NCBI GenBank assembly: GCA_046590325.1
Contig: JBKJUC010000037.1
Location: 3,457-67,456, forward strand
Length of the DNA: 64,000 nt
Direction: 5' to 3'
Source of the DNA: Burkholderiales bacterium
Lineage (GTDB): Bacteria > Pseudomonadota > Gammaproteobacteria > Burkholderiales > JACQAP01
Part shown: in pieces, positions 1 through 55,912 of the stretch
Layout of the letters: each line of letters starts with the position of its first letter
Numbering within the stretch: the stretch's first letter is position 1
The notes under the pieces: generated by a model
The model's input: only the letters and a program-made list of their open reading frames with translations
What the model was told of the DNA's origin: nothing
Databases searched by the model: none
Translations under genes and position numbers: made by a program

Positions 1-133
1 CGGGCTGAACATCAGGTAAAAGCACAAAAAGCCGGCCGCGAGGACTAGTATCCATGAGAAAAAAAGAGGCTCGGAGCGAAATGTAATTGCCGACATGGAT
101 CGATTCCGTTGGTCCGACGATGGGCCTTGGCAA

Positions 134-169
134 CAAAAGAAAAAAAGAGGGCGCCCTGCGGCACCCTCT
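134..169 (-). terminator. Rho-independent terminator downstream of the pilin gene
   Basis: Plus strand 146-169 agagggcgccctgcggcaccctct folds into a GC-rich stem with one mismatch and a 4-nt loop. On the minus strand it is followed by TTTTTTCTTTTG (134-145). It lies about 60 nt past the pilin stop at 229. Confidence 0.7.
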
Positions 170-228
170 TTCACTACGTCCGCGGCTAAAGAATCGCCGT
201 GGTCAACAAGAACTCCAGAGCAAAAATA

Positions 229-747
229 TTAGCTCGTGCTCTCGGAGAACGTGCCGGTACCGACAGCAGTGGCAGCACGGCAGGAACCCGGCAGGTACTT
301 GTCCATGTTCGGGGCACCACCGTCACCACCGCAATCCCAGATCGCAATCGCGGAGCCGGCGGTCGGCGCAGCGGCACGGAGGGTGTCAGCCCAGGGCTTC
401 AGGTAGACGAAGCGGCCGTTCAGCTCGGAATTGATGCCGGAACTGACCGTAACCCGGATCTCGCCCAGGTCGCTGGTCTCGATCATCTGCACGTACTTGG
501 TGATCGGCTTCGGGTCGGTGGTGCGCGACTCGCAACCCCACTGGCCGCCAGCGGGCAAGGTGGAGGAAGACTGGACGGTCTCGGTGATGCTGGTACGGCA
601 AGCCGAACCGGCCAGAATGACTTCAGACATCTTGGCACGGGCGGTGTAGTCCTGGTACGCCGGCAGCGCAACCGCGGCCAGAATACCGATGATCGCGACA
701 ACGATCATCAGTTCGATCAGGGTAAAACCCTTTTGTACGGCCTTCAT
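229..747 (-). CDS. pilA: Type IV pilin (major pilin, PilA/PilE-like)
   Basis: N-terminus [34 protein letters not shown] is the prepilin leader and N-methylation motif (Gly-1, Phe+1, Glu+5). Four Cys in the C-terminal half. ATG at 745-747 with AAGGAG 7 nt upstream. Confidence 0.92.
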
Positions 748-813
748 GGAATTGCTCCTTAACTGGTTGGATGATCAAACACACCTGTTTTCCGTGTGTT
801 CGGTGTCCATATC

Positions 814-828
814 GCAAACCCTGTGCCA
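814..828 (-). promoter_or_regulatory. Sigma54 (RpoN) -24/-12 promoter for the pilin gene
   Basis: Minus strand reads TGGCACAGGGTTTGC, an exact TGGCAC-N5-TTGC with GG-N10-GC spacing. It ends 66 nt upstream of the pilin ATG. Type IVa pilin genes are classically RpoN/PilR dependent. Confidence 0.7.
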
Positions 829-1034
829 ACAGTTCCGCAAGTTTAAAAACAGGGGTCAGAAATCGCGAAATGCCATAAAAACTCGCCTGATATCAGACCC
901 ATGTGCAAGGTTCTTAAATACCCGAGCATCCGGCAAAGTGCGTGCGCCACAGGATTTCCGGGGTTTTGTCCGGCGTCTGCCCAAACGATTTTCCGATGCC
1001 GCTTCAAGCAACTGTCAGGAACTGACGCAGTTTG

Positions 1035-2672
1035 TCACTGCGGCTGAAACCCCGGAATGGCGGCCTCGTCGACGACGTCGATCTGTTCCGGATCCAGGAA
1101 CTGTTCCGCATATCGGAGATAAACCTTCTCCCGGACGAATACGTTGAACAGGTCGGGATCGACATGGCCGTTGAGCTTGAATCTACCCAGGATGTTCAGA
1201 GATTCGGTGAGGGTCTTGCCTTTCTTGTACGGACGATCCCTGGCGGTTAAGGCCTCGAAAATGTCGGCGATGCCCATGACGCGGGCCTGGACAGACATCT
1301 GCTCGCGCATAAGCCCCCGGGGATAGCCCTTGCCGTCCATGCGCTCATGGTGGCCGCCGGCATACTCAGGAACGTTCTTGAGGTGTCGGGGCCAGGGCAG
1401 CGACTCCAGCATCTTGATCGTGACCTCGATGTGGTGATTGATGGTGTGGCGCTCTTCAGGCGTCAGCGTCCCAGAGCGGATGGTCAGGTTCCTGGCCTCT
1501 TCGTCGGTCAAAAAATCAACGCCGTTGCCATCCACGTCCCGCCAGCGATAGTTCCGCGAGATCTCGCGCACGCGCTCCTGGTCGTCGTCGCGCATCGCTT
1601 CAGACCCGAAGTTGCAAAAGCGCAGGAACTGGCGGTCCTCGTTGATCTTGCGCAGCCGCACGGTGAGGTCACGATCGGCGTTCTGCCACTCGCCATTGGC
1701 ATTCGAGGGTGCCGCCAGCTTCTCTTTCATCGCCGCTATTTCCGCGTCGCGCTTGATCACTTCGAAGCGCGTATCCACCAGCCCGATGCGGTCGAAAATG
1801 GTCTGCAGCTTGGTAGCCTTGTCGACGACGTGCACCGGCGTCGTGACTTTGCCGCAATCGTGCAGAAGTCCGGCGATCTTCAGTTCGTAGCGATCCTTCT
1901 CGCTCATGGTGAAATCCGCCAGCGGGCCCTGCTTCGTGGCGTTCACCGCCTCCGCCAGCATCATTGTGAGGGTCGGCACTCGCTGACAGTGTCCGCCGGT
2001 ATAGGGCGACTTGTCGTCGATCGCGGCGTTGATCAGGCTGATGAACGATTCGAACAGGCCTTCCAGCTGGTTGATGAGCTGCCGGTTCGTCAGGGCAACT
2101 GCCGCCTGCGACGCCAGCGACTCGGCCAGATGCTGGTCGGCCTCCGAGAAGGGCACGATGCCCCCGCTGACGCGATCCTTGGCGTTGATCAGCTGCAACA
2201 CCCCGATAATCTCGTCCTCATGGTTCTTCATCGGCACCGTCAGGAAAGACTTCGACCGGTAATTGGTCTTCCTGTCGAAGTTCTTGGTGCCGGTAAAGTC
2301 GAACCCCTTCTCCGTGTAGGCGTCGGCAATATTTACGGTCTCGTCACGCAGTACCGAATACGCCACCACCATGGAATTGTTGGCCCGGCCTTCGTCATCG
2401 AACAGGCGCACCGGATAGAACGGCACGGTAACCCCGGTCGTTCCGCCCATCGCGACGTTCAGGGAATCGGTGCGCAGGATCTCGAAGTAAACGAGCTTCC
2501 TGTCGTTGTCCACGCGGTAGAGGGTGCCGCCATCAGCATTGGTGATTTTCTTGGCGGCTACCAGGATTGCCTCGAGCAGGCGATTGGTGTCCTTTTCCTG
2601 GGAAAGGGAGATTCCGATGCCGTTCAGCTCTTCCAGGCGGCGGAACATTTCCGCCGTGCTCGATTCGCTCAT
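1035..2672 (-). CDS. GAF domain-containing HD-GYP protein (putative c-di-GMP phosphodiesterase)
   Basis: N-terminal GAF-like region (about 200 aa, ...IGVLQLINAKDRVSG...). HD motif LLHDCGKVTTP. C-terminal GGHHERMDGKGYPRGL (HHExxDGxGYP). ATG at 2670-2672, 34 nt after the upstream ATPase stop. Confidence 0.85.
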   Translation of the reverse strand: MSESSTAEMFRRLEELNGIGISLSQEKDTNRLLEAILVAAKKITNADGGTLYRVDNDRKLVYFEILRTDSLNVAMGGTTGVTVPFYPVRLFDDEGRANNSMVVAYSVLRDETVNIADAYTEKGFDFTGTKNFDRKTNYRSKSFLTVPMKNHEDEIIGVLQLINAKDRVSGGIVPFSEADQHLAESLASQAAVALTNRQLINQLEGLFESFISLINAAIDDKSPYTGGHCQRVPTLTMMLAEAVNATKQGPLADFTMSEKDRYELKIAGLLHDCGKVTTPVHVVDKATKLQTIFDRIGLVDTRFEVIKRDAEIAAMKEKLAAPSNANGEWQNADRDLTVRLRKINEDRQFLRFCNFGSEAMRDDDQERVREISRNYRWRDVDGNGVDFLTDEEARNLTIRSGTLTPEERHTINHHIEVTIKMLESLPWPRHLKNVPEYAGGHHERMDGKGYPRGLMREQMSVQARVMGIADIFEALTARDRPYKKGKTLTESLNILGRFKLNGHVDPDLFNVFVREKVYLRYAEQFLDPEQIDVVDEAAIPGFQPQ

Positions 2673-2706
2673 GGAGAGTGTGTTGCGGTTTTGCCCGGGG
2701 AGACCG

Positions 2707-5103
2707 CTACTTGATGCACACGGCGCGCACCTGGAGCATGTCGGTCACGCCCATAAGGACCTTCTCGATACCGTCCTGCTTGAGCGTGCGCATGCCCTCG
2801 GCCAGCGCCGTGGCGAAAATCTCCGCAACCCGCGCGTGTTCCTGGATGTGTTTTTTCACCGTGTCGGTCCCGACCAGCAGTTCATGCAAACCGACCCGGC
2901 CCTTGTAGCCGCTGCCGCCGCAGGTATCACATCCCACGGGGGTGTATACGGTGAATTGCCCCTTGTCGTCCGCGAACAGCTTGCTCCAATCGCGGTAGAC
3001 GCCTTCGTACGCCGCTTTCGGATCGCGTTTCCAGGCGTCGGTGGCCTTCAGCTCGACGCAGTATTCCTCGAGCATGCTTCTGAGTTCTTCCTGGGTGGCG
3101 GTATGCGGCGACTTGCACTTGGAGCACAGGCGCTTGGCCAGGCGTTGAGCCAGAATGCCGAGCAGCGCATCGGCGAAATTGAACGGATCCATGCCCATGT
3201 CCAGCAGGCGGATGATCGACTCCGGCGCGCTGTTGGTGTGCAGCGTTGCGAACACCAGATGGCCCGTGAGCGAGGCCTCGATACCGGTCGAGGTCGTTTC
3301 CTTGTCGCGCATTTCGCCGACCATGATGATGTCCGGATCGGCGCGCAAGAAGGCTCTCATCGCCACGGCGAACGTAAGGCCTGCCTTCGGGTTCATCTGC
3401 ACCTGGCGCAGGCCCTTTTGCGTGATTTCAACCGGGTCCTCCGCCGTCCAGATCTTGGTATCCGGCGTATTCAGGAAACCCAGGACGGAATGCAGCGTGG
3501 TCGTCTTGCCCGAACCCGTTGGGCCGCATACGAAAAACAATCCGTAGGGCTTGGTCACCGTTTCCTTGAGCGTGCCGAGATTGCGTTGCGACAATCCGAG
3601 CTTGTCCAGCGGGATCGGTTCACCGGCCGCGAGGATACGCATGACGATGTCTTCGACCCCGCCCGCCGAGGGTATGGTTGCCACCCGCAATTCGATGTCG
3701 AGCGGCCCGAATTTCCTGAACTTGATCTTGCCGTCCTGCGGTTTACGCTTTTCGGAAATATCCAGGTCGCACATGATCTTCAGGCGTGCGGCGATGGCGT
3801 TGCGGTAGCTCGCCGGAACCGAAATATAAGGCTGCAGGGTGCCATCCCTGCGGAAGCGGATTTCCGTTTTGCCCTTGCCGGGATAGGGTTCGATGTGGAT
3901 GTCCGACGCGCCCTGATTGTAGGCGTCGATGATCACTTTGTTAACCAACTTGACCAGCTCATTGTCCTGGGCGAGCGAAACATCATCGGTGCTCCCGTCC
4001 TCGCCGATTTCCTCGTCGTCCATCCCGGACAACAGGTCGCTGATGTTGCCGGAATCCCCGCCGCCGGTGCCGGCACCAAACAGCTGGTCCAGCGTGGCGC
4101 CGAACTCGCGCCGGGTGCAAACCTTGTAGACGATCTTGTGCTTGGGGAAGATGTTGGTGACCACCTTCGACGCCCGCACTTTTTCCGGGTCCGTGGTGAG
4201 CACGATCAGGCCCTCCTTCACGTCTTCCACAGGCACCCAGGAGCTGCTCTCGACGAAATCCCGCTTGAGGTTCTTAAGCAGGTCGAGTGGTTTTACGCGA
4301 TCCTGCCTGAAAGGCTCGTAGGGAACCTTGAAGAACTGCGACAGTGCCTCGCCGATCGCGGGCGCCTTGACCTGAAACTCGTCGATCAGCACTTCCTCGA
4401 TATCGAGGTTCTTGCGCCTGGCGGAGCGAGTCGCAAGGTCCATCTCCTCAGCCGACAGCACGGCATCGGTAACCAGATAGTCGTACTTTCCGCGCAGCAT
4501 CGTCGCCGGACGGCTGCGCTGCTTGAGCGCAATGGCCAGGGTTTCGCTGAGGTGCGACGCGCCCTCTTCGGCGACCGTCGAGAACGGGTGCCCGCTCTTG
4601 GCGTTGATCACCTGCACGACGCCGATCAGTTCGCCGTTGGGACCGCCGTCGATCACCGGAGCCACCAGCATCTGCTTGGTGCGATAGCCGGTACGCCGGT
4701 CCACTTCCTTGAGGAACTTCAGGTTCGGAGTGTGGCTCCGCAGCTCCGCGTCGTCATAGACGTCGCGGATGTTGATCAGCTTTCTGGACAGCGCGACAAA
4801 GCCGGCAATGCTTTGCTCGTTGATTGGTAGCTTCAGGTCCTTGAAGGAGGACAGGCCGGTTTTGACCTTCGAAATGATCGAAGTCCTGTCGTCGGACGAA
4901 ACGTAGATGGTGAGGCGATCGGCATCGAACAGAGAGCAGATATCCTGCGACAGCTCCAGCATGATCTCGTCGATGTTGCTGGTGGCGTGGACTTTGTTCG
5001 TCACCGCCTGGAGTTTCTTCTGAAACTCCAGCTTGTTGCTCATCTCGGCCAGGTTTTGCCCGGCTTGTGGCTTCGTCTCAAAGACTGTGCTCATGGCGTG
5101 CAT
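2707..5103 (-). CDS. GAF-fused type II secretion / type IV pilus assembly ATPase (GspE/PilB family)
   Basis: 798 aa. N-terminal GAF-like region (...LIGVVQVINAKSGHPF...), then a T2SSE_N-like region. Walker A is GPTGSGKTTTL, Walker B/Asp box is DPDIIMVGEMRD, His box is TGHLVFATLHTN. Tetra-Cys motif CSKC...CDTCGGSGYKGR. ATG at 5101-5103 preceded by GGAAGG. Confidence 0.9.
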   Translation of the reverse strand: MHAMSTVFETKPQAGQNLAEMSNKLEFQKKLQAVTNKVHATSNIDEIMLELSQDICSLFDADRLTIYVSSDDRTSIISKVKTGLSSFKDLKLPINEQSIAGFVALSRKLINIRDVYDDAELRSHTPNLKFLKEVDRRTGYRTKQMLVAPVIDGGPNGELIGVVQVINAKSGHPFSTVAEEGASHLSETLAIALKQRSRPATMLRGKYDYLVTDAVLSAEEMDLATRSARRKNLDIEEVLIDEFQVKAPAIGEALSQFFKVPYEPFRQDRVKPLDLLKNLKRDFVESSSWVPVEDVKEGLIVLTTDPEKVRASKVVTNIFPKHKIVYKVCTRREFGATLDQLFGAGTGGGDSGNISDLLSGMDDEEIGEDGSTDDVSLAQDNELVKLVNKVIIDAYNQGASDIHIEPYPGKGKTEIRFRRDGTLQPYISVPASYRNAIAARLKIMCDLDISEKRKPQDGKIKFRKFGPLDIELRVATIPSAGGVEDIVMRILAAGEPIPLDKLGLSQRNLGTLKETVTKPYGLFFVCGPTGSGKTTTLHSVLGFLNTPDTKIWTAEDPVEITQKGLRQVQMNPKAGLTFAVAMRAFLRADPDIIMVGEMRDKETTSTGIEASLTGHLVFATLHTNSAPESIIRLLDMGMDPFNFADALLGILAQRLAKRLCSKCKSPHTATQEELRSMLEEYCVELKATDAWKRDPKAAYEGVYRDWSKLFADDKGQFTVYTPVGCDTCGGSGYKGRVGLHELLVGTDTVKKHIQEHARVAEIFATALAEGMRTLKQDGIEKVLMGVTDMLQVRAVCIK

Positions 5104-5183
5104 CCTTCCATCATGACCGGGGCCACTGCGGGGATACTACCCCAGCGTCGACCCGGCGGCTAACATCGGTCGTTGTTGCCGCG

Positions 5184-5948
5184 CTAGAACTTGAATACCT
5201 GGCCGTTGGACAGCATCCGCGGGTTGTAGCTCTCCGCGCATTCCTCGACTTCCTGCATGGTGAGCGTTCCGGCGCCGGGCTTCAGATGCGTAACGAACAC
5301 GCGCGTGCTGCGCTTGAGTTTCGACAACTCTTCTGCAAGCATGCTCGGACAGAGATGCTTGGAGGCAATCGCCAGTTCCTTCTCCATGTTCGGGAAGGCG
5401 GTTTCAATGATCAGATAACGCAGATTCTCGATCTTGTTGACCTCGGTCCACAAGGCATCGTTGGCCGTCGTATCCCCTGTGAAGACCAGGCTTGACTCCC
5501 CGCTGTCAAGCTGGAAACCGACGGCCGGAACGACGTGATTGGCGGGCAGCACGGTGATGCGCCTGCCATCGAGGACCTTGGTTTGCCCGATCTCGAGTGT
5601 GGAGTAACGCATGCAGGGCGCCGCCTTGCTGGGTATCTCTGTGAAATCCGGCCACACCTTCCAGTTGAAAATGTGGTCCTGCAGGATCCTGCGTGTCGCT
5701 TCCGTGCAATAGACGGTGATCGGCGTGTCCCGCATCGGCCCCACGGTATCCACCAGGAACGGCAGCGAAGTAATGTGGTCGAGGTGCGAGTGCGTAAGGA
5801 AAACATGGTCGATCTTCAGCAGATCGGTCAACGTCAGATCGCCGACGCCCGTTCCGGCATCGATGAGCATGTCGTTGTCGACCAGCATCGACGTGGTGCG
5901 CAGGTTGCCGCCAATGCCGCCGCTGCATCCGAGTATTCTGATCTGCAT
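5184..5948 (-). CDS. Class II 3',5'-cyclic-nucleotide phosphodiesterase (metallo-beta-lactamase fold, CpdP-like)
   Basis: MQIRILGCSGGIGG... and HSHLDH metal motif, 254 aa. This architecture is typical of class II cAMP/cGMP phosphodiesterases. The start is 2 nt after the cyclase stop. Confidence 0.75.
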   Translation of the reverse strand: MQIRILGCSGGIGGNLRTTSMLVDNDMLIDAGTGVGDLTLTDLLKIDHVFLTHSHLDHITSLPFLVDTVGPMRDTPITVYCTEATRRILQDHIFNWKVWPDFTEIPSKAAPCMRYSTLEIGQTKVLDGRRITVLPANHVVPAVGFQLDSGESSLVFTGDTTANDALWTEVNKIENLRYLIIETAFPNMEKELAIASKHLCPSMLAEELSKLKRSTRVFVTHLKPGAGTLTMQEVEECAESYNPRMLSNGQVFKF

Positions 5949-5950
5949 AA

Positions 5951-8179
5951 CTATTTGGTATCAAACCTCCACGAGCCGTCCCAGCCGTCTTCCGGTGGAT
6001 TAGCGCGAAAATGCACTATGCGCTCGAGGAAAAGTTTGTAAAGTCCGCTGTTCGCATTGATCTTGAGCAGGTTGAGCAGTTGCAATTCTGCCATATCCCA
6101 GTCCCTCAACCGGTACAGCTTGAGGGCCTGCCCCCACAGTTTCATTTCGTCCTGAACCGGCTTTCCGACCTCCCCGGCCACCCCAATCGGCTCAAAAATG
6201 GCCACGGGCGCGTCCTTGCCCTTCACTTTGACCCGGTCGAGCTCGCGGAACGCCACGTCGGGGACCTGAATGCGGGTCGATTCCCCCACGATCATGCCGA
6301 CCCCATACTGCTTGGTGATCCCTTCCAGCCGGGAGGCCAGGTTCACGGCATCGCCCATCACGGTGTACGCAAGCCGGATTTCCGACCCCATGTTGCCCAC
6401 ATTCATGCGGCCGCTGTTGACACCCACGCCGATGTGTATCGGCGGCCAGCCTTTATCCTTGAAATGCGGTTGCAGCGATTCCAGGGCCTTGTGCATCTCC
6501 AGGCCCGCGAGCAGCGCATTGCGGGCATTCTGCGGGTCGCTCAGGGGCGCGCCCCAGAAGGCCATGATGCAATCGCCCATGTACTTGTCGATGGTGCCAC
6601 GGTGCTTGTAGATGATGCGGCTCAGCGGCGTGAGGAACTCGTTCATGAGTTTGGAGAGCTCCTTCGGATCCAGCCCTTCGGAGATCGTGGTGAATCCCCG
6701 AACGTCGGTGAACAGCACCGTCAGTTCCCGGCTTTCGCCTTCCATCGAGAACGCCTCTGGATCCTTGCTCATCTCGTCCACCAGTTCGGGCGGAACGTAC
6801 TGGCCGAACAATCCGCTGATCTGGCGCTTGGCGCGCGATTCGACAAAGAATCCGTAGGACATGTTCAGGGCGAACAGCATCGCGATCATCAGCAGCCCGG
6901 ATGCCAGTGGCAGGATCAGGTTGCCTTCCGTCCAGACCATGACATTGGTTGCGAACACCACTACCAGCACGACCCCGGTAAGGACGGTGGAGCGCAGCGG
7001 ACTGATGATCGGCAGCAACAGTGCCATGACAACGCCGGAGAACAACAGGAGCATGACCTCCGCGCCGAGCACATAGGGCGGGCGCTGCTTGATGTTTCCG
7101 TCCAGCATGCCGGCAATCAGATTGGCATGGATCTCGACTCCGGGATAGACGTTCGCGACTGGCGTTGCCCGCAGGTCGAACAAGCCTGGGGCGGTAGTTC
7201 CTACTAGGACGATCTTGTTTTTAAGTTCCTCGACCGGAGTGGCTCCGTGCAGTACGTCCGTCGCGGAAATGTACTTGAAGCTGCCCTGCCTGCCGCGATA
7301 GGGTACCAGCGTGGTAACGAGGTCGTCGACCGGTACGCGAACGTCGCCGATTTCTATCCATTCCAGGCCTGGATAATCCTTCGACCAGAGCTTGCCCTCC
7401 GGGAATCCCGGCACGACTCTTGGTGAACCCAATCCGAGGCGGATCACCGCCATCGACAGGGATTCGAAATAGGCGCCGTCGTACTCGGCGATCATCGGCA
7501 CCCGCCGCGTGACGCCATCCTCATCGGGGTAGGGATTGAAGTGGCCGCCGCTCGCAGCCGCCTTCTGGAACTCGGGCAGGTTCGCGCCGAAGCCCAGCCA
7601 GCGCGTAAACGTAACATTCCTTCCCTTAAAGGTTCCGGACGGCAGGACAGGTTCCGGCAGCAGGCCGTTGGTCCGGCCCTTGCCATCGTCCGACTGAAGG
7701 CTGGAAAAATAGTAGCCGAGTACCACGGCGCGATTCTTCAGCTTTTCCGCGAATAAGCGGTCGTATTCGAGTTGCGGACCGACTTCCTTAAGCACCGCCT
7801 GAAATTGCGGGTTACCTTTCAGTTCGTTCTGTCCCAATTGCTGCAACATCCCGAGACCGGAACTTTCGTCACGCTCCGCGAATACCACATCGAAGCCCAC
7901 GATACCGACGTGATAGTGGTCGAACAACTGGTCCAGCATCGTCCCCAGCTTGTCGCGGCGCCACGGCCAGCGGCCTTCGACGGCCAGGCTCTTCTCGTCG
8001 ATGTCGATGATGACAATGCGGGGATCGACGGTATTCGCCATCGTCAGGCGCAGGCGCGCGTCATAGACGATGTTCTCGAAACGCTTGATGAATGGGATGT
8101 CGTAGTACTGCGCGGCGTGCCCGACAAAGACCAGAACGACAACGAGCCCGAGCGCGATACGCACCAGGTGCTTTTTCAA
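5951..8179 (-). CDS. CHASE2 sensor domain-containing class III adenylate/guanylate cyclase
   Basis: N-terminal TM segment, then a CHASE2-like periplasmic region (IIDIDEKSLAVEGRWPWRRD) and a hydrophobic TM block. Cyclase core is LTVLFTDVRGFTTISE...DKYMGDCIMAFWGAP...YTVMGDAVNLASRLE. TTG start at 8179 preceded by AAGGGGGG; a GTG at 8164 is the alternative. Confidence 0.85.
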   Translation of the reverse strand: MKKHLVRIALGLVVVLVFVGHAAQYYDIPFIKRFENIVYDARLRLTMANTVDPRIVIIDIDEKSLAVEGRWPWRRDKLGTMLDQLFDHYHVGIVGFDVVFAERDESSGLGMLQQLGQNELKGNPQFQAVLKEVGPQLEYDRLFAEKLKNRAVVLGYYFSSLQSDDGKGRTNGLLPEPVLPSGTFKGRNVTFTRWLGFGANLPEFQKAAASGGHFNPYPDEDGVTRRVPMIAEYDGAYFESLSMAVIRLGLGSPRVVPGFPEGKLWSKDYPGLEWIEIGDVRVPVDDLVTTLVPYRGRQGSFKYISATDVLHGATPVEELKNKIVLVGTTAPGLFDLRATPVANVYPGVEIHANLIAGMLDGNIKQRPPYVLGAEVMLLLFSGVVMALLLPIISPLRSTVLTGVVLVVVFATNVMVWTEGNLILPLASGLLMIAMLFALNMSYGFFVESRAKRQISGLFGQYVPPELVDEMSKDPEAFSMEGESRELTVLFTDVRGFTTISEGLDPKELSKLMNEFLTPLSRIIYKHRGTIDKYMGDCIMAFWGAPLSDPQNARNALLAGLEMHKALESLQPHFKDKGWPPIHIGVGVNSGRMNVGNMGSEIRLAYTVMGDAVNLASRLEGITKQYGVGMIVGESTRIQVPDVAFRELDRVKVKGKDAPVAIFEPIGVAGEVGKPVQDEMKLWGQALKLYRLRDWDMAELQLLNLLKINANSGLYKLFLERIVHFRANPPEDGWDGSWRFDTK

Positions 8180-8308
8180 ACGCCCCCCTTTGCAATAGTG
8201 CGTGCCCGGCTCACCGCTTCAAACTCACGAGCCTGGGCCGGCGGTTCTTTTGGTAATCGAGCCGGACGGCTTCCGCAACTCCGCCCGTAACGCCCGCGAG
8301 GCAAAGGC

Positions 8309-9130
8309 TCAGGCCTTCAGGAAAAACTCCATTTTCACGCCGGCCAGCTCGATGATGTCGTGGTCGCTCAACTGGTGGGCCTGCGCATCGAGCGTCTTGC
8401 CGTTGACCACGGGGAAATTGGCGCCTTCCACGTGCGTGATGAAGTAGCCCTGCGGGCGTTTTGCGATAACCGCCACCTGGACGCCTGGCTTGCCCAGCGT
8501 GGTTAGGGGCTTGGCCAGCGGCAGTTCCTTGCCGGCGTTTGGGCCGGACAGGATCTGGATCATGCCCTGAGCGCCGGCGGTCGGAGCCGGCATTGCGGGC
8601 GTTGCGGCCGGATGTGCGGGGGCTGCGGGCTTTGGCGCGACAGGCGGAATGGTTGCCATCCCTGCCGGTGCGGCGACGGGTGCAGGCGCAGGTTGGGCAC
8701 TGATCGATGTATCGCCGAGATTCACCGCTTGCGTGTTGGTCTGCGTATCCGTGGGGTTTCTTTCGACCTTGGGTGCAGGCGCGGCAGCCGGAGCGCGCAA
8801 CACCATGGTCTTCTCAAAATCTTCCTGGGTCAGGTTGCTCGGCGCTTCACTCGCGTACTTGATCTTGTATTTGCCGATTTCGATGACGTCGTTATTCTGC
8901 AGGAAATGCTTCTTGACCGGCTGGCCGTTGATCAGGGTGCCGTTGGTGCTTCCCAAGTCTTCCAGGAAGGAGTCGTTGAGGATAGTCATGATCATGGCGT
9001 GCTCGCCGCTGACAGCCAGATTGTCGATCTGGATGTCGTTATGGGGCTTGCGGCCGATGGTGGTGCGCTCTTTCGAGAGCGTGAACTCCTTGATCACCTG
9101 TCCATCGAGACTCAATATCAACTTCGCCAT
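8309..9130 (-). CDS. FHA domain-containing protein (N-terminal FHA, Pro/Ala linker, C-terminal FHA-like domain)
   Basis: N-terminus has TIGRKPHNDIQIDNLAVSGEHAMI...GSTNGTLINGQPV (FHA signature G-R...S-x-x-H...NG). The central part is a PAPA-rich linker. The C-terminus has TLGKPG...VVNGKTL...DIIELAGVKMEF. Confidence 0.85.
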   Translation of the reverse strand: MAKLILSLDGQVIKEFTLSKERTTIGRKPHNDIQIDNLAVSGEHAMIMTILNDSFLEDLGSTNGTLINGQPVKKHFLQNNDVIEIGKYKIKYASEAPSNLTQEDFEKTMVLRAPAAAPAPKVERNPTDTQTNTQAVNLGDTSISAQPAPAPVAAPAGMATIPPVAPKPAAPAHPAATPAMPAPTAGAQGMIQILSGPNAGKELPLAKPLTTLGKPGVQVAVIAKRPQGYFITHVEGANFPVVNGKTLDAQAHQLSDHDIIELAGVKMEFFLKA

Positions 9131-9142
9131 GGCTGCTTCCTC

Positions 9143-9967
9143 TTATTTGAACCACCCAAGGAACTTCGTCATCCAGCCGTCGTCGGCCGGAAATTCCTTT
9201 TTGACCTTCATCAGGATCACGGACACATTATCGCGTCCGCCGTTGTCATTGGCCATCTGCACCAGCTGCTCCGCAGCCAGTTGCAGATTCGCCCCGAACG
9301 CGCCCAGGGTCATTTCGATGTCCTCGTCCTCGACCATGTCGTTGAGGCCGTCCGAGCACAACAGGTAAATATCACCATTCTGCACGGGATAGGTGTGGAT
9401 GTCGGCCTCGACCTGCGGTTCGATGCCGAGGGCCCGGGTCACCAGGTTCTTGTTCTGGGAACGCCGCGCCGCCTCCTTCGTGAGCAAGCCGCTGTCGATC
9501 TGTTCCTGGAGCAGGGAATGGTCCCGTGTAATCTGTTCGAGCTTTTCGCCCCGGTAGCGATAGCCGCGCGAATCGCCGATATGCGCAATCGTAATCTGGT
9601 TGTCGCAGAGCAGTGTTACCACCAGTGTCGTGCCCATTCCGGCGTACTGCGGCTGGCTGTTCGCCGACTGGTAAATTGAGGTATTGGCCTTGGCTATGAT
9701 TTCGCGAAGGAGCCGGGTCGCCACCGGCGCGCCGGTGTTCCTGTCGATCTGGTGCGGGGCCTGGCGCACCATGGCTTCCCGTGTCTCGCTGGAAATCAGC
9801 GCGGTTGCTATGCCGCTGGCCACCTCGCCCGCGTTGTACCCCCCCATGCCGTCGGCTAGCACGGCCAGGCCGAAGTCCGCGTCTGCGGTGATGCTGTCCT
9901 CGTTATGCGACCGGACCATCCCCGTGTGGGTGGCTTTTACCATCTGAATCGAGGTGCTGAGGCTCAT
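9143..9967 (-). CDS. PP2C-family Ser/Thr protein phosphatase (Stp1-like)
   Basis: ATHTGMVRSHNEDS...LADGMGGYNAGEVAS...GGRDNVSVIL. The start is set to the ATG at 9965-9967 (MSLSTSIQ). The longer track ORF to 10111 would overlap the upstream kinase gene. Confidence 0.85.
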   Translation of the reverse strand: MSLSTSIQMVKATHTGMVRSHNEDSITADADFGLAVLADGMGGYNAGEVASGIATALISSETREAMVRQAPHQIDRNTGAPVATRLLREIIAKANTSIYQSANSQPQYAGMGTTLVVTLLCDNQITIAHIGDSRGYRYRGEKLEQITRDHSLLQEQIDSGLLTKEAARRSQNKNLVTRALGIEPQVEADIHTYPVQNGDIYLLCSDGLNDMVEDEDIEMTLGAFGANLQLAAEQLVQMANDNGGRDNVSVILMKVKKEFPADDGWMTKFLGWFK

Positions 9968-9981
9968 TTTTTTATATTCCG

Positions 9982-12528
9982 TCAGAGTGCCACGTCCACT
10001 TCGCCGAACTGCGCGGCGCATTCCCGGACCGCTTTCGCGAACTCGTCGCCTGTCTTGTAGCGCTGCGTGACGTCTTTTGCCAGCGCCTTGTTGATGATCG
10101 CCACCAGGCACTCCGGAATCGCCGGATTGATGCCCAGGATGTCTACCGGCGGTTCATTGGCGATCTTGAACATCAATTGGGTCATCGAGTCGCCCTGAAA
10201 AGGCAGGCTGCCGCATGAAAGCTGGTAAAGGGTCACGCCCAGGGAAAACAGGTCGGACTGTCCGTCGATCTTCCTGCCCGCAAGTTGCTCCGGCGACATG
10301 TAGGACGGCGTGCCAAGCACCATGCCCGTCTTGGTCTTCGAGGAATCGGTGATGCGGGCAATACCGAAGTCGGTGACCTTGACAGCGTCCGCATCGGGGT
10401 CGTACATGATGTTAGCCGGCTTGATGTCACGATGGACCACGCTCTGCAGATGCGCGTAAGACAGCGCCTCTGCAACGCGGGCGACGATCGAAAGGGTCTT
10501 GGGCAGCGGCAGGAGGGCGGCCAGCTTGGTCTGCGGCACCAGGTCCTTGCCCTTTAGGAACTCCATCGCGATGTAGGCGAGATCGTGCTCTTCGCCCGCG
10601 TCGTAGATGGTGACGATGTTCGGATGATTGAGCCGACCCGCCGTCTCAGCCTCGCGGAAGAAACGCTGCTTGACGTCCTCGAGTTCGTCGGCTTCGAACT
10701 CCTGGGAAAGGGCCATGGTTTTGATTGCCACGACCCGGCCGATCTTGGGATCTTTGCCAAGGTAGACCACCCCCATTGCACCCTTGCCGAGCTCCTTCTC
10801 CACCTGATAGCGGCCCAGCATCGGCTTTTCCACCGAACCGCCTTCCAGCATCAGCGTGCTGGCATTGGTGCGCCCGCTGCTGCCGCCGAGGATGACGGTC
10901 TCCGACATCTGCTTGGCGCGGTTGAGCTTCTTGTCGAGGTCACGGAATTTCGGATTGTAGGTGGCCATGTACTCGTACACCGCCTGCGCCTTGTTGAACT
11001 GGCGCTTGCGCTCAAAGTCCAGTGCAAGGTTGTACATGTTGTCCATCACCGCATCCTCAAGCGGCACCTTCTTGAATTTGTCGAAGGCCATGTCGAGCTG
11101 GCCCTGGCCCTGGAAGGCTAGGCCGAGCATGCGGTTCGATTCGGCCGACTCGAGGTCCGACTTGGCCTTGCCACGCTCCGTAACCAGGAAGCGCTTTGTG
11201 GTCAGCAGTACGTGACCGATTACCAGCAGCACAGCCGAAGCCATCAGCTGGATCCACATTAGCTGGCTCGTCATCAGCACGAAATGCACGGCGATGAGCG
11301 CGATCAGCACGGCCGCGCTGATCGCGAATCCCATTCCGGCCTTAAGGCGCGGCAGCAGCAGAATCAGGTAAAGAGCCACTGCCAGGAAGGCCAGTTTCTC
11401 GACCCAGAATCCCCAAGCAGGCACGACGAAGAAATCTTCTTCGAGGATGCTGGATACCGAATGGGCCAGGGTTACCACGGGCGGCATAGCGGGCGAAATC
11501 GGCGTCACCTGGTAGGTGCCAACGCCAGCCGCCGTCGCGCCGATCAGCACCACCTTGTCGCGATACTTTTCGGCTGGGATCTTGTCCGTGATGACGTCGT
11601 AGAAAGAATCCAACGGGAATGCGGGCTTGCCGTCGCGGTCCTTGTAGAAATAGCTGTGCATCTGCAGGTAAGGATCGGTACGGATATTGAGGTTGCCAAT
11701 TTTCACGCCTTCACCCAACCGCATTTCGACGTCTGCGGGTCCGAGGTTCAGACTCCTCGCCGCCAGCATCATAGAGAAGGACGGGAAATACCGGTCGTAG
11801 TAACGCAACACCAGGGGTTCAGTGCGAGTGCTGCCGTCCACGTCAGGCAAGGCATTGAGGTGCCCTATGGCCCCAGCGCCGACCGCAATCTGCTCCAGCG
11901 GCACGACGGCTTGCAGAGTCGGCGGCGGAAAAATATTGCTCTGGGCCGCGCCGACGTTGTCGATAACTTTGGTGATTTGGTTCTTGAGAATGTAATCCGC
12001 CAGCGGGCTGTCAGGATTGCCGAGCGGCTCGCCGACGGTAAACAACATCGGCAACGCTACATTGCCAGCCTCGGTTACCGCGGCGGCAAGTTTTCGGTCG
12101 CTGTTTAGGGCATCGTCGGCTTCGACCAAGACTGAAGCGAATTCGACCATGTTCTGCTGCTGGACGGGCGGAAGCCCCTGAAAGAGTTCCGCGAGCTTGT
12201 GGATATAGGCGAGGCCAGGGTCCACCTGAGGCTCGAAGAAGAAGGAGGAGTAGCCCACGACTTTTACGCCAGCCTGCTTCAGCTTGGCGATCATCTGCGC
12301 GTGAACTTCTCGCGGCCAGGGCCAGCGCCCGATATTGGCGATGCTCTGATCGTCGATGGCAATAACCGCCACGCGCTGCGACGGCGCGAGGTTCGACGCC
12401 CGAACGCCCAGATCGTAAGCCTGGCGTTCCAGACCTTGAATCAGATCGCTGCTGGACGCTACGAGTAGTACCAGCGCAACAACGATGCCGAGAAACCAAT
12501 CGGCTTTCCAAAAAGCCGTTTTCTTCAT
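9982..12528 (-). CDS. CHASE2 sensor domain-containing Ser/Thr protein kinase (Hanks type) with TPR-like linker
   Basis: N-terminal TM segment, CHASE2-like region (IAIDDQSIANIGRWPWPRE), and a TM block. The C-terminal kinase has GKGAMGVVYLG, VAIK, HRDIKPANIM, DFGIA and SPEQ. ATG at 12526-12528 (MKKTAFW); the track ORF starts 9 nt upstream at a GTG. Confidence 0.88.
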   Translation of the reverse strand: MKKTAFWKADWFLGIVVALVLLVASSSDLIQGLERQAYDLGVRASNLAPSQRVAVIAIDDQSIANIGRWPWPREVHAQMIAKLKQAGVKVVGYSSFFFEPQVDPGLAYIHKLAELFQGLPPVQQQNMVEFASVLVEADDALNSDRKLAAAVTEAGNVALPMLFTVGEPLGNPDSPLADYILKNQITKVIDNVGAAQSNIFPPPTLQAVVPLEQIAVGAGAIGHLNALPDVDGSTRTEPLVLRYYDRYFPSFSMMLAARSLNLGPADVEMRLGEGVKIGNLNIRTDPYLQMHSYFYKDRDGKPAFPLDSFYDVITDKIPAEKYRDKVVLIGATAAGVGTYQVTPISPAMPPVVTLAHSVSSILEEDFFVVPAWGFWVEKLAFLAVALYLILLLPRLKAGMGFAISAAVLIALIAVHFVLMTSQLMWIQLMASAVLLVIGHVLLTTKRFLVTERGKAKSDLESAESNRMLGLAFQGQGQLDMAFDKFKKVPLEDAVMDNMYNLALDFERKRQFNKAQAVYEYMATYNPKFRDLDKKLNRAKQMSETVILGGSSGRTNASTLMLEGGSVEKPMLGRYQVEKELGKGAMGVVYLGKDPKIGRVVAIKTMALSQEFEADELEDVKQRFFREAETAGRLNHPNIVTIYDAGEEHDLAYIAMEFLKGKDLVPQTKLAALLPLPKTLSIVARVAEALSYAHLQSVVHRDIKPANIMYDPDADAVKVTDFGIARITDSSKTKTGMVLGTPSYMSPEQLAGRKIDGQSDLFSLGVTLYQLSCGSLPFQGDSMTQLMFKIANEPPVDILGINPAIPECLVAIINKALAKDVTQRYKTGDEFAKAVRECAAQFGEVDVAL

Positions 12529-13012
12529 GCCACCCACCCTGTTGGATGCCTGAAGGCTTTGATTTTAGTAAGTTAAGCCTCTCAAGCTCGAGATATTACG
12601 ATATTCCGGCCGAAAGTATATGATTTTTTTAAACTCTGGGGTCAAAGGGCGTGAACTGGACCTTCTGCCCGACAAGCGACAGGAAACGATGAGCCAGACT
12701 TAACCGCCTTGGCCCCGGTCACGCTGGCCCCGCCGTCTGCGCCGCCTCGGCTTTTTGAAGACCCGGATTTTTCGAACCGTTGCGGTTTGGACTGGCCTTG
12801 CCTATCGCCGCGCCCGAGCCCGGATATCAGCATGCGTAAGCGAACGATGCGCCATTGTCCCAATAAAAACGGGGCCGTCAACTTGCAGAGGCAACGGCTT
12901 CGGTTTGTTTGCTGGAAGCCGACAAGGCAAAGTGGGGACGAGCCTGCCACACCGGGAATCCCCAGCGGTTGATGCGATGGAGCCAGCAAGCCCGAAACGA
13001 ACTGGCGGCAGT

Positions 13013-14212
13013 TCAGGCGTGCACGGACTCCTGCCGGCGCATCACGCCGACCAGGACGTTCTCGAAATCGCTGAACACTTGCTCCCAGTCGATGCGCTCC
13101 GCGACGGTTCGCGCCTGGGCACGGAGCGTAGCGATACGCTCGGGGTCCGTGGCGAGGGCGGCCGCGAGCCGCGTGAATGCGGCGGCGTCCCCGAACGGGG
13201 CCAGCAGCCCGCTGACCTCATGACCTACGTACTGCTGGGCCGCGGCATAGTCAAAGGCAATCACCGCCAGCCCGCTCGCCATGGCCTCCAGCGTCACGTT
13301 GCCAAAGGTCTCCGTCATGCTCGGGAATAGGAATACGTCGGCTGAGGCGAAATGGGCCGCGAGCTCGTCGCCCGTGCGTGTGCCGGCAAAGATTACGCGA
13401 GGATGGCGATTTTGCAGTTCCTTGCGCTCCGGCCCGTCCCCGACCATGATCAGTTTCGTCGCCGGTGCGGCTGCGCGCATTGCTTCGAACGCTTCGACCA
13501 CCACGGGCAGGTTCTTTTCCGCTGCCAGCCTGCCGACATAGAGCGCGACCGGCGCATCCTGAGCCGCGACCCATGAACGGCGCAGTTCCGCGCTGCGTCG
13601 CCCGGGTGTGAACATCCGTGTGTCGACGCCACGGGAAACCACATGGAGATTTTCGAAGCCCTGCGCAGCGAGTTCCAGACGCAGGTCTTCCGTCGGCACC
13701 AGCGTGGCGAGCGCCCGGTTGTGAAACTTGCGCAGATACGCGGCTATGGGCTTTTTCATGAAGCCAACGCCGTAGTGGCGACTGTAACTGTGGAAGTTGG
13801 TGTGGAAGCCGGTCGACACCGGCAGTTTAAGTTTGGACGCTGCGGCCAGTGCCGACCAGCCCAGCGGACCTTCGGTGGCGATATGGACCACGTCCGGACG
13901 CCGCAGGGACCACAGCCGGAACAATGCCTGTTTGGCGGGCAATCCCATCTTCAGCCCGTCATAGCGCGGAATGGATATGCCAGGTTTGAGCACTTCCTCG
14001 AACTGGTCACTGCTGGCGGGATTCTCCGCGGCGTTCTGGCGCGGCCGAATCAGCTGCACCCGATGACGCCGCCGCTGCAAACCTTCAACCATGCGCGCGA
14101 TCGTCATCGCGACACCGTTCACCTCCGGCGGGTAGGTCTCGGTGACGACAGCCACCCGCAGGGAGGATATTGCTTCTGGAAGCTCTTGAAGGACAAAGTC
14201 TTCGTCAATCAT
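13013..14212 (-). CDS. Glycosyltransferase family 4 (GT1 superfamily)
   Basis: LRVAVVTETYPPEVNGVA at the N-terminus and the FPSMTETFGNVTLEAMASG (E-x7-E) region. 399 aa. Confidence 0.8.
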   Translation of the reverse strand: MIDEDFVLQELPEAISSLRVAVVTETYPPEVNGVAMTIARMVEGLQRRRHRVQLIRPRQNAAENPASSDQFEEVLKPGISIPRYDGLKMGLPAKQALFRLWSLRRPDVVHIATEGPLGWSALAAASKLKLPVSTGFHTNFHSYSRHYGVGFMKKPIAAYLRKFHNRALATLVPTEDLRLELAAQGFENLHVVSRGVDTRMFTPGRRSAELRRSWVAAQDAPVALYVGRLAAEKNLPVVVEAFEAMRAAAPATKLIMVGDGPERKELQNRHPRVIFAGTRTGDELAAHFASADVFLFPSMTETFGNVTLEAMASGLAVIAFDYAAAQQYVGHEVSGLLAPFGDAAAFTRLAAALATDPERIATLRAQARTVAERIDWEQVFSDFENVLVGVMRRQESVHA

Positions 14213-14673: not shown

Positions 14674-16143
14674 TCAGATTTGCGGTGTCCATTTCAGATC
14701 CAGTTCTCTTGCGGCCCTGACATCGTCCAGCCGGCGCACGGGCGTGCTGTGCGGGGCGGACTTGACCAGTTCCGGATTATTGCGCGCTTCTGCACGGATT
14801 TCGCTCATGGCCTCGACAAATTTATCCAGCGTCTGTTTCGACTCCGTTTCCGTAGGCTCGATCAACAGGCATTCCGGCACCAGCAGGGGAAAATAGGTGG
14901 TAGGTGCATGGAAGCCCTTATCCAGCAGGCGCTTGGCCACGTCCATTGCGGTGACCCCGGTGGCATCCTTGAGTTCCTTTAGGCTGATGATGAACTCGTG
15001 GCTCGCGCGACGTTGCGGAAAGGCCAGCTCAAAACCTGCGACCCGAAGGCGCGCCATCAGGTAGTTGGCATTCAGCGTCGCAAACTCCGCCACGCGACGC
15101 ATACCGTCGGCGCCAAGCATGCGAGCATAGATGTAAGCGCGCAGCAGCACACCGGCATTGCCGTTGAAAGCGGAGAGCCTGCCGATGGAGTCGGGCCGGT
15201 CGTGCTCGCCAATCCAACGGAAATGCGGGCCATCGGCCGAGACAATGGGCAGCGGCAGGAAAGGCAGCAGCCGGCTCGACACGCCGACCGGTCCGGCGCC
15301 GGGCCCGCCGCCGCCGTGAGGCGTGGCGAAGGTCTTGTGCAGATTCATGTGGATCACATCGAAACCCATGTCGCCCGGCTTGACCTTGCCCAGGATGGCA
15401 TTGAGGTTGGCGCCGTCGTAGTAGAGCAAGCCGCCGGCTCCGTGCACGATTTCTCGGATTTGTTCGATGCTGCGCTCAAAAACGCCCAACGTGGACGGAT
15501 TGGTCAGCATCAACCCAGCGGTCTGCGGGCCCACCGCTGTGCGCAACGCCCCGAGGTCCACGTTGCCGTCGCGCTGCGTCGGAATCTCCCTGACGGCGTA
15601 GCCACACATGGTCGCCGTCGCGGGATTCGTCCCGTGCGCCGCATCGGGAACGATGATCTCGGTTCGCGCGCTGTCGCTACGGGAACGATGGTATGCACGG
15701 ATCATTGCCACTCCGGCCAGTTCTCCCTGCGCCCCGGCCATGGGCGCAAGGCTCACGCCCGCCATACCCGTGACGTTGCGCAACATCTCCTGCAACTCGT
15801 GCATGCAGGCGAGAAAGCCCTGGCCAGTTTCGTCCGGCGCCAGGGGATGGCGTGAGACGAAGCCCGGCAACATGGCCAGCTGGTTGCACGCGCGCGGGTT
15901 GTATTTCATGGTGCAGGACCCGAGCGGATAGAAATGCGTGTCGATGGAAAAATTGCGCTGCGACAGCCGCGTGTAGTGGCGCAGCGCATCCAGCTCCGAC
16001 ACCTCCGGCAAGGCCGGCGCAACTTCCCGCAGCAGGCTGGCCGGAAGATCCGTCGGGAACGGGGCATCCGGTGCCTGCAGACGGGCGCGGCGCCCGCCGC
16101 GGGAAAGCTCGAAAATAAGCGGGCAGGAGTTGTGTATTTCCAT
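14674..16143 (-). CDS. gcvPB: Glycine dehydrogenase (decarboxylating) subunit 2
   Basis: Strong GcvPB-like sequence ([39 protein letters not shown] with the PLP lysine). The start is set to the ATG at 16141-16143; the track ORF begins at a TTG 18 nt upstream. Confidence 0.92.
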
Positions 16144-16185
16144 CGTCGGCAAGGGGTGCAACGCTAACGGCTGATTGCTACCGCA

Positions 16186-16686: not shown

Positions 16687-16742
16687 TTGTTTCTCCTTGG
16701 TTGGACTGCTTTTCCTGGTTGGGGCTGGAAATCTTCAGGACC

Positions 16743-38796: not shown

Positions 38797-38868
38797 CGTC
38801 TGATTCGGGCTAAAAATCGCGCCAGAACAGGCGCTTAACCTTATCATTGTGAACAGGGCAAAGCCTTA

Positions 38869-52589: not shown

Positions 52590-52597
52590 CGGCAGAG

Positions 52598-55911: not shown

Positions 55912-55912
55912 G

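Follow-up and report, generated by a model that had tools for sequence, protein, structure and literature searches.

A conserved betaproteobacterial gene cluster predicted to couple cAMP, phospho-threonine and c-di-GMP signalling to a type IV pilus-type motor

Can a cyclic mononucleotide act directly on the motor of a type IV pilus? This question is raised by eight minus-strand genes in a 64,000-nucleotide stretch of a Burkholderiales bacterium genome (contig JBKJUC010000037.1, hereafter the window). They encode a CHASE2-Ser/Thr kinase, a PP2C phosphatase, an FHA protein, a CHASE2-class III cyclase, a phosphodiesterase (PDE), a PilB-like ATPase that begins with a GAF domain, a GAF-HD-GYP protein and a type IV pilin. 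Type IV pili power twitching, surface sensing, DNA uptake and biofilm formation, and their motors are tuned by cyclic di-GMP (c-di-GMP). To our knowledge, cyclic AMP (cAMP) acts on these pili only via transcription factors. We lean towards the view that the locus holds a conserved betaproteobacterial operon forming a self-contained cAMP circuit, which would be read by the motor of a type IV pilus and by an enzyme hydrolysing c-di-GMP, with phospho-threonine as a second input. The ligands and the direction of regulation in this circuit are all predicted from sequence.

The gene cluster and its conservation in Betaproteobacteria

The eight open reading frames (ORFs) span positions 229-12537 of the window (Table 1). 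From kinase to pilin, the gaps in the ORF listing are 14, 12, 129, 2, 80, 34 and 287 nt. Coordinates, gaps and all domain calls were confirmed: the gene list and gaps given in an initial annotation of this DNA agree exactly with the ORF listing, and each of the domains it named scores above the Pfam gathering score. The composition it described, with a writer, an eraser and two GAF readers of cyclic mononucleotides (cNMP) next to a kinase/phosphatase/FHA trio, is therefore upheld. The two CHASE2 proteins are the only predicted membrane proteins, with 1 + 3 transmembrane segments each, and their CHASE2 domains are paralogous (29% identity).

We scanned one genome per species with the ATPase, which gave more than 591 loci, and analysed the best 80 together with 10 kb on each side; presence counts cover the loci with enough flanking sequence. 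These 80 loci all belong to Betaproteobacteria (Burkholderiales in the GTDB sense). Carriers include Gallionella, Sideroxydans, Sulfuricella, Nitrosomonadales, Rhodocyclaceae, Methyloversatilis, Propionivibrio, Chitinimonas and Pelomicrobium, and the nearest relatives are metagenome-assembled genomes of uncultured Burkholderiales. The order kinase-PP2C-FHA-cyclase-PDE-ATPase-HD-GYP, on the same strand, is found in most of the 80 species-level loci. Because this gene order recurs in 80 species-level genomes, the cluster is far beyond what chance would produce. Median identities of the module proteins are 60-70% across the 80 loci, and the catalytic motifs of the module enzymes are invariant in the orthologue alignments. 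The co-occurrence of these genes across genomes, which the initial annotation had put forward as a check, is borne out by the counts in Table 1. The flanks depend on the lineage: the closest relatives have gcv, diacylglycerol kinase and GT4 glycosyltransferase genes there, whereas Usp, TerC or formyltransferase genes take this place in others. The module therefore travels as a unit.

A gene combining a CAP-type cNMP_binding domain with a Rhodanese domain lies between the PDE and ATPase genes in 27/76 loci (for example locus L021, 8900-9966, and locus L055, 8677-9750); it is not present in the window. Its product would be a third class of cyclic-nucleotide reader, which strengthens the predicted cNMP theme of the module. 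ORF clustering of the 80 loci revealed no recurrent neighbour beyond nine families, and several apparent families were antisense shadow ORFs. A separate observation concerns six loci in which a Ser/Thr kinase fused to a cNMP-binding domain is encoded within 10 kb downstream of the module (for example L001, 21298-22725, and L027, 17872-19245). This fusion is a second link between cNMP and phospho-threonine; its counterpart in the window would fall before the window start.

The module proteins carry only generic database names. In the library searched, literature on GAF with PilB/T2SSE, on CHASE2 with FHA, PP2C and cyclase, and on Gallionellaceae with cNMP and pili yielded no description of the cluster, in line with the earlier statement that no characterised system of this composition was known.

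Table 1. Features of the signalling cluster in the window and occurrence of its genes among related loci
Feature	Position	Strand	Evidence	Loci with the gene
CHASE2-Ser/Thr kinase (Hanks-type, membrane), 851 aa from GTG	9982..12537	-	Pfam CHASE2 2e-51, Pkinase 1e-53	38/57 (67%)
PP2C-type Ser/Thr phosphatase, 274 aa	9143..9967	-	Pfam PP2C_2/PP2C; NCBIfam Stp1/IreP	55/63 (87%)
FHA protein	8309..9130	-	Pfam FHA 4.6e-22	56/64 (88%)
CHASE2-class IIIb adenylate cyclase (predicted), 742 aa, membrane	5951..8179	-	Pfam CHASE2 2e-56, Guanylate_cyc 1.5e-20	49/66 (74%)
Metallo-beta-lactamase-fold phosphodiesterase, probable cNMP eraser, 254 aa	5184..5948	-	Pfam Lactamase_B_2 + partial PDEase_II	62/74
GAF + MshEN + T2SSE PilB-like ATPase, 798 aa	2707..5103	-	Pfam; MshEN = T2SSE_N	
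GAF + HD-GYP phosphodiesterase (predicted), 545 aa	1035..2672	-	Pfam GAF, HD, HD_5	65/70
Sigma54 -24/-12 promoter of pilin gene	814..828	-	Perfect consensus match	
Type IVa major pilin, 172 aa	229..747	-	Pfam Pilin 1e-11, N_methyl 7e-10	30/61 (prepilin gene <=2.9 kb downstream of ATPase)
Intrinsic terminator 3' of pilin gene	143..172	-	13-bp stem, 7 GC pairs, then T-run	
Intergenic region upstream of kinase, AT-rich promoter-like stretch, probable operon start	12538..13012	.	Sigma70-like site	

Predicted readers, writer and eraser of cyclic nucleotides

The ATPase has a T2SSE domain (Pfam 5e-114) in which the Walker A (GPTGSGKTT), Walker B (DPD..MVGEMRD) and His box (TGHLVFATLHTN) motifs are invariant in 81 ATPase sequences. 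Its best-scoring NCBIfam model is PilB (TIGR02538), with 490 bits for a cut-off of 675.65, followed by GspE (439.6 bits for a cut-off of 630.25) and TfpB (382 bits, under the cut-off). The PilB match covers model positions 5-472 plus a second stretch, and beyond residue ~205 the protein aligns with nearly the entire model. M. xanthus PilB, Thermus PilF and Geobacter PilB are the best PDB relatives of the core. A zinc tetracysteine motif (CxxC...CxxC) is present, with a spacer longer than in the Pfam model and with four Cys columns at least 90% conserved across distant clades. Judged by these alignments, the motor is a PilB-like extension ATPase of full length that bears an additional GAF domain, of predicted cNMP type, at its N-terminus. 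The initial annotation had called the protein a GspE/PilB ATPase; the assignment as an ATPase stood, and the NCBIfam and PDB matches indicate a PilB-like motor rather than a GspE secretion ATPase.

When the sequence of the ATPase GAF domain was compared with the PDB, it matched CyaB2 (4e-25), PDE10A (2e-10) and PDE2A (1e-8), and also PmGH, PDE5 and PDE6. All solved GAF domains matched at E <1e-4 are cNMP binders or PmGH. An AlphaFold2 (AF2) model of residues 1-380 (pLDDT 80) retrieved PmGH, CyaB2, PDE5/2/6/10A and cAMP-bound Lcd1 (5W10) with Foldseek, and shows long helices flanking the GAF core (18-40, 176-200), as in dimeric signalling GAF domains. The contacts of cAMP in the GAFb domain of CyaB2 are R291, T293, I308, D356 and N359 (PMC4411481). 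They align with R63 (80/80), T65 (79/80), V80, D135 (81/81) and T138 (81/81) of the ATPase, each conserved in at least 79/80 sequences, and PDE10A, whose GAF domain binds cAMP, shares the Thr at the T138/N359 position. Both GAF domains of the cluster have cNMP-binding GAF domains as best matches, by sequence and, for the ATPase GAF, by Foldseek, which agrees with their original description as cNMP-type readers.

Between the GAF domain and the motor core lies an MshEN domain. The c-di-GMP motif of MshEN consists of two tandem copies of RLGxx(L/V/I)(L/V/I)xxG(L/V/I)(L/V/I)xxxxLxxxLxxQ, 24 residues. The roles of R9 and Q32 in MshEN have been described (PMC12943098). In the ATPases related to that of the window, the first copy has T/S/G at position 1, Y at position 3 and A at position 24 (81/81), and the second has D at position 1, E at position 3 (81/81), F at position 10 and F/Y at position 24. 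The key R, G and Q are replaced in 81/81 ATPases and the motif is degenerate. From these alignments, the motor looks rewired from c-di-GMP to cAMP input.

The GAF-MshEN-T2SSE architecture extends beyond this clade, with 268 clusters (50% identity, E ≤ 1e-30 to the N-terminal 380 residues), some of them with two or three GAF domains. The Nitrospira representatives (L081/L082, 10001-12322, 12490-13395) are 95-98% conserved and adjoin two PilZ genes, with no cyclase or PDE. The position of Arg63, which would contact adenine N1, is occupied by Asp in the Nitrospira clade and by Arg in most other clades. This hints that the nucleotide preference of the GAF domain may track the genomic context. Two other motor-linked genes were noticed. 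In Methylotenera (L053, 12452-13903), a PAS-GAF-GGDEF diguanylate cyclase gene follows the GAF-ATPase gene and replaces that for HD-GYP, and in one relative (L056, 16202-18622) the pilin and TPR genes are closely followed by a gene for a second regulated ATPase, of 806 aa with REC + MshEN + T2SSE domains. Sensor domains fused to motors seem, from such architectures, to be common in the group. The Methylotenera gene and the two Nitrospira PilZ genes also tie the ATPase to c-di-GMP proteins in other lineages.

The best PDB match of the GAF-HD-GYP protein is PmGH (4MCW). Its motifs H271-D272, H441-H442-E443...G449-Y450-P451 (HHExxDGxGYP) and R480-P-Y-K483 are invariant in 66 HD-GYP orthologues. 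An Rxx(K/R) motif is of the c-di-GMP type in HD-GYP domains, and Rxx(Q/N) of the cGAMP type (10.1101/600031). Because HD, GYP and RxxK are all kept, the protein is predicted to be a c-di-GMP hydrolase. It carries an insertion of ~110 aa inside the HD-GYP domain (residues ~291-398, window 1479-1802), which is conserved: 122-184 aa separate the HD motif from the next conserved His. Leptospira LIC_11189 has been described with a GAF-associated insertion in its HD-GYP domain (PMC12943098), and that of the window may be of the same kind, the two being likened by description only. The GAF domain of this protein is 33% identical to that of the ATPase over 107 residues. It keeps T50, D133 and T136, has Gly/Ala at the position of the adenine-contacting Arg291 of CyaB2, and after PmGH is nearer to PDE5 (1.5e-17) than to CyaB2.

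The cyclase domain has Cya2, P. aeruginosa CyaB and Spirulina CyaC as best PDB matches. The metal-binding D492/D536, the specificity pair K532/T606 and N613/R617 are invariant in 58/58 cyclase orthologues. At the specificity positions, the window cyclase reads IDK532YMGD and AYT606VMGD; CyaB (3R5G) and CyaC (1WC0) have the same K/T pair, and the guanylate cyclase Cya2 (2W01) has E/G. This is the residue pattern of a class IIIb adenylate cyclase, and as the K532/T606 pair is invariant in all 58 orthologues, cAMP is the predicted messenger. The cyclic mononucleotide postulated in the initial annotation can thus be narrowed by prediction to cAMP, the presence of a cyclase having been confirmed.

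The PDEase_II match of the PDE reaches 50 bits for a cut-off of 23.7, but spans only 62 residues around the HxHLDH motif, which is invariant among its orthologues. Sequence comparison shows weak resemblance to RNase Z, CPSF73 and yeast PDE1. Foldseek with the AF2 model (pLDDT 89.9) listed, in this order, YhfI (7.6e-16), yeast PDE1 (1.1e-14, TMq 0.81), an ElaC homologue, RNase Z and Apyc1 (3e-13). For a protein 98% identical to the PDE, the precomputed Pfam domains are Anti-Pycsar_Apyc1 and PDEase_II, and orthologues are named 3',5'-cyclic-nucleotide phosphodiesterase at NCBI and ribonuclease BN at JGI. From its genomic context, we read the protein as a plausible, putative cNMP phosphodiesterase.

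Phospho-threonine genes, pilin and the proposed circuit

The kinase has an alternative ATG start at 12528, which coincides with the end of the island in the initial annotation and would yield 848 aa; it is the start annotated in a 98%-identical relative, and its VAIK, HRD, DFG and SPE motifs are invariant in 42 orthologues. The longest PP2C ORF reaches 10111 but overlaps the kinase. The phosphatase scores 252.7 bits with the NCBIfam Stp1/IreP model (cut-off 230), and its metal-binding DGMGG, SDGL and DN motifs are invariant in 59 orthologues. The FHA protein consists of an N-terminal FHA domain, a linker rich in Pro and Ala, and a C-terminal domain that faintly resembles FHA; the C-terminal 85 aa faintly match Yop-YscD_cpl. 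The phospho-threonine-binding GR, SxxH and NG residues, as defined in PMC1262709, are invariant in 44 orthologues. The best NCBIfam matches of the protein are OdhI and FhaB. About 15 residues past the FHA domain, the sequence DFEK-T108-MVL is invariant in 44/44 orthologues (Thr108 corresponds to window 8807-8809). FHA domains favour Thr-x-x-Leu sites, and Thr108 is possibly the phospho-acceptor of a self-recognition switch of the GarA/OdhI kind.

Seven loci of the Pelomicrobium type (L014, L015, L055, L056, L062, L063 and L080) have the arrangement PP2C-FHA-PDE-(cNMP/rhodanese)-ATPase-HD-GYP, and encode neither a CHASE2 kinase nor a CHASE2 cyclase within 10 kb. PP2C and FHA are there linked to PDE, ATPase and HD-GYP without the CHASE2 genes, and the FHA step is therefore most likely on the effector side.

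The pilin has a 7-residue leader followed by G|FTLIE and a Pilin domain. Its gene is preceded, 67 nt upstream of the ATG, by TGGCACAGGGTTTGC, a perfect match to TGGCAC-N5-TTGC and one of two perfect matches in the 64 kb. The other, at 20271-20285(+), falls within the gcvT ORF, on the opposite strand, and is probably due to chance. In 36/37 related loci the pilin is preceded, at a similar distance, by an equivalent sigma54 element, which supports the sigma54-driven expression proposed in the initial annotation. Its inclusion of the pilin in the island holds only in part: the gene adjoins the others, but it forms its own transcription unit with promoter and terminator, and only about half of the loci have it next to the module. 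The pilin is a neighbour, not an operon member. In the closest relatives an O-antigen-ligase-like gene lies downstream of the pilin, and TPR or TPR + GT41 genes are also seen there (L001, 15159-16613; L071, 18160-20109; L016, 11637-13403). Their predicted products suggest that the post-pilin genes are species-variable pilin-glycosylation cassettes.

In the circuit that we propose, the membrane-bound CHASE2-cyclase would make cAMP and the metallo-beta-lactamase-fold PDE would remove it. Binding of cAMP to the GAF domain of the ATPase would alter the activity of the hexamer and thereby the extension of a type IVa pilus, built from the adjoining sigma54-dependent pilin. The same nucleotide, or a related cNMP, would also switch the HD-GYP enzyme and so couple cAMP to the c-di-GMP level, as in Tlr0485 (see below). 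The CHASE2 kinase and PP2C would set the phosphorylation of a target read by the FHA protein, which could act on the ATPase, HD-GYP or PDE, or on its own Thr108 in the manner of GarA/OdhI, and not only on the cyclase. We advance more tentatively, as a proposal that may well fail, that cAMP gates a PilB-type motor directly via GAF, supplanting c-di-GMP and MshEN, and that a Thr108 switch in the FHA protein provides a second, kinase-dependent gate on the motor or on HD-GYP.

Several observations weigh against the proposed circuit. In none of the 80 loci did the 10 kb on either side of the ATPase contain a pilC, pilD, pilT or pilMNOPQ gene; the machine that is served is therefore deduced only from the similarity to PilB and from pilin adjacency in about half of the loci. 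The ATPase itself scores under the NCBIfam PilB cut-off. In the PDE, the fold is about as near to RNase Z/ElaC (Foldseek, ~1e-14) as to PDE1 and Apyc1. The ligand of the HD-GYP GAF domain is less certain because the Arg is replaced by Gly/Ala. Finally, between a quarter and a third of the loci lack the cyclase and kinase.

Part of this evidence could be read differently. The ATPase might serve another filament or secretion system, or stand alone, with incidental pilin adjacency. The lack of platform, peptidase and alignment genes near it, the scores below both the PilB and GspE equivalog cut-offs, the separate sigma54 unit of the pilin and the Nitrospira homologue that stands alone beside PilZ genes would all fit such a role. 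We nevertheless consider it improbable, since the region after the GAF domain best matches PilB/PilF over its full length, a type IVa major pilin with glycosylation-type neighbours follows directly downstream in many species, and no alternative machine is encoded nearby. The same low probability is given to the view that the GAF domains bind a ligand other than cAMP, be it cGMP, some further nucleotide or a metabolite, and that the cyclase and PDE signal mainly to Crp-type or cNMP-binding proteins elsewhere. GAF ligands are diverse, and CyaB2's GAFb domain, when isolated, takes both cAMP and cGMP (PMC4411481). The ligand of the PmGH GAF domain is unknown, the HD-GYP GAF domain is without an Arg291 equivalent and nearer to the cGMP-specific PDE5 than to CyaB2, and CAP-type cNMP-binding proteins are encoded in and near the module. 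In the ATPase GAF, however, the CyaB2 contact positions are conserved and the solved structures matched at E <1e-4 are all cNMP binders or PmGH, and the tight linkage of PDE, ATPase and HD-GYP would be hard to explain without a shared nucleotide.

The initial annotation had arranged the genes as a linear cascade, in which an extracytoplasmic cue sensed by CHASE2 leads the kinase to mark the cyclase or a partner, FHA gates the cyclase, and cNMP switches the ATPase and HD-GYP. The kinase-PP2C-FHA-cyclase order with short gaps agrees with it, as do the paralogous CHASE2 domains of shared topology and a juxtamembrane Thr of the cyclase found in 45/58 orthologues; FHA-cyclase fusions reportedly exist, for example Synechocystis Cya1, of which the literature search gave no confirmation. 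This cascade is nonetheless weakened by the seven loci that keep PP2C-FHA without both CHASE2 genes. Furthermore, FHA and PP2C are retained more often than cyclase and kinase (Table 1), and the invariant Thr108-x-x-Leu of the FHA protein suggests another logic, so that we now regard the cascade as unlikely. Least probable by far, and in our opinion barely credible, is a Pycsar-type anti-phage island in which a cNMP cyclase would be joined by a nuclease resembling Apyc1 and by a defence kinase. PADLOC did match PycC to the cyclase domain (1.4e-29) and PD-T4-6 to the kinase domain, and the PDE resembles Apyc1, but these PADLOC matches are generic and at domain level, and neither a Pycsar effector nor any further defence protein was hit. 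In addition, the cyclase has the K/T pair of adenylate cyclases and a CHASE2 receptor, the surroundings are of a housekeeping nature, and an order stable in 80 species at 60-70% median identity is unlike patchy defence islands. The defence-island reading was rejected, as PADLOC gave only generic kinase and cyclase domain matches.

The individual parts of the proposed cAMP circuit belong to known families, and it is the cAMP-type GAF domain on a PilB motor and the seven-gene combination that are uncharacterised in the literature searched. If the proposal is true, it would be the first case of direct cyclic-mononucleotide allostery on an ATPase of the type II secretion/type IV pilus family, and the module would be a hard-wired node joining cAMP, phospho-threonine and c-di-GMP signalling. 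It would offer a faster, post-translational path from an envelope cue to pilus dynamics, and a compact, genetically linked model for cross-talk between three signalling currencies. Among Betaproteobacteria of environmental importance the module is widespread; its carriers include oxidisers of iron, sulfur and ammonia, as well as methylotrophs and Rhodocyclaceae. Since GAF-PilB proteins also occur outside this clade, for example in Nitrospira, the principle may be general.

Upstream of 12.6 kb, the window contains housekeeping genes: GT4 glycosyltransferase, diacylglycerol kinase, a split gcvP, gcvT, prmA and accC. The remainder of the window is likewise housekeeping. With such a flank, the limits of the island are placed at ~12.5-13.0 kb and at the window start. 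A sigma70-like site is located at 12881-12854(-), upstream of the kinase, together with an AT-rich stretch at ~12640-12560, and the sole ORF in 12538-13012 (12642-12989) has no Pfam match. An Rfam scan of window positions 1-13100 at E ≤ 0.1 gave no match, hence no riboswitch or leader RNA accounting for the intergenic gaps.

Some other genes of the window deserve mention. Glycine dehydrogenase is split into GcvP1 (449 aa) and GcvP2 (495 aa), encoded ~580 nt apart at 14674-18092. At 37013-38847, a His_kinase (PF06580) and LytTR response-regulator pair lies beside hemC/hemD/hemX/hemY and argH, which is the AlgZ(FimS)/AlgR arrangement of Pseudomonas; there, AlgR controls minor-pilin genes. A 300-aa Ser/Thr kinase with a Pkinase domain only (51921-53500) overlaps or abuts an ORF of the histidine-phosphatase superfamily and appears unrelated to the island. 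At 55249-56876, nitrile-hydratase-like alpha and beta subunit genes (NHase_alpha 1e-79) adjoin a CoA-transferase family III gene, and the alpha subunit weakly matches a ribosomally synthesised peptide family.

Relation to known signalling systems

The logic predicted for the window resembles the control of pili by c-di-GMP through MshE/PilB, by FimX-PilZ-PilB and by cAMP through Vfr or Sycrp1. V. cholerae MshE and the P. aeruginosa type II secretion ATPase are likewise PilB/GspE-family hexamers with a second-messenger input at the N-terminus, the MshEN domain (PMC4624772, PMC12943098). In contrast to MshE, the window ATPase has degenerate MshEN motifs preceded by an extra GAF domain, and its predicted ligand is cAMP instead of c-di-GMP.

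The two GAF-HD-GYP proteins Tlr0485 of Thermosynechococcus and PmGH of Persephonella have the same architecture as that of the window, where HD, GYP and RxxK are intact. In Tlr0485, c-di-GMP hydrolysis depends on cAMP at the GAF domain (10.1101/2021.11.05.467447). The window protein differs from both by its insertion, by the lack of an Arg291 equivalent and by its location in an operon with a cyclase, a PDE and a pilus ATPase. A cAMP-bound GAF domain also steers cyclic-dinucleotide enzymes in M. xanthus GacB and Leptospira Lcd1, which are GAF-GGDEF proteins (10.1101/600031). Unlike in the window, their output is synthesis and not hydrolysis, and no motor ATPase is involved.

The same kinase/PP2C/FHA trio is known from M. 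tuberculosis (PknB-PstP-FhaA/B, with GarA/OdhI) and from the type VI secretion system of P. aeruginosa, where PpkA-PppA-Fha1 is a post-translational gate on an envelope machine. In contrast to these PknB and PpkA modules, the sensor of the window kinase is CHASE2 and the trio is embedded in a cyclic-nucleotide operon. CHASE2 receptors fused to class III cyclases are also found in S. meliloti CyaD1, CyaD2 and CyaK, which produce cAMP upon an external signal (PMC13001267, PMC5498481). Their output is the Crp-like Clr and, unlike in the window, no ATPase, HD-GYP or phospho-threonine module is linked to them.

The closest physiological parallels are circuits in which cAMP from a class III cyclase governs type IV pili. 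One is the Chp-CyaB-Vfr-CpdA circuit of P. aeruginosa; another is Cya1-Sycrp1 of Synechocystis (PMC7690835). The eraser of the former is of the CpdA type, whereas that of the window has a metallo-beta-lactamase fold. Both the Vfr and Sycrp1 circuits act via Crp-family transcription factors, whereas in the window the motor itself carries the predicted cAMP receptor as a fused domain.

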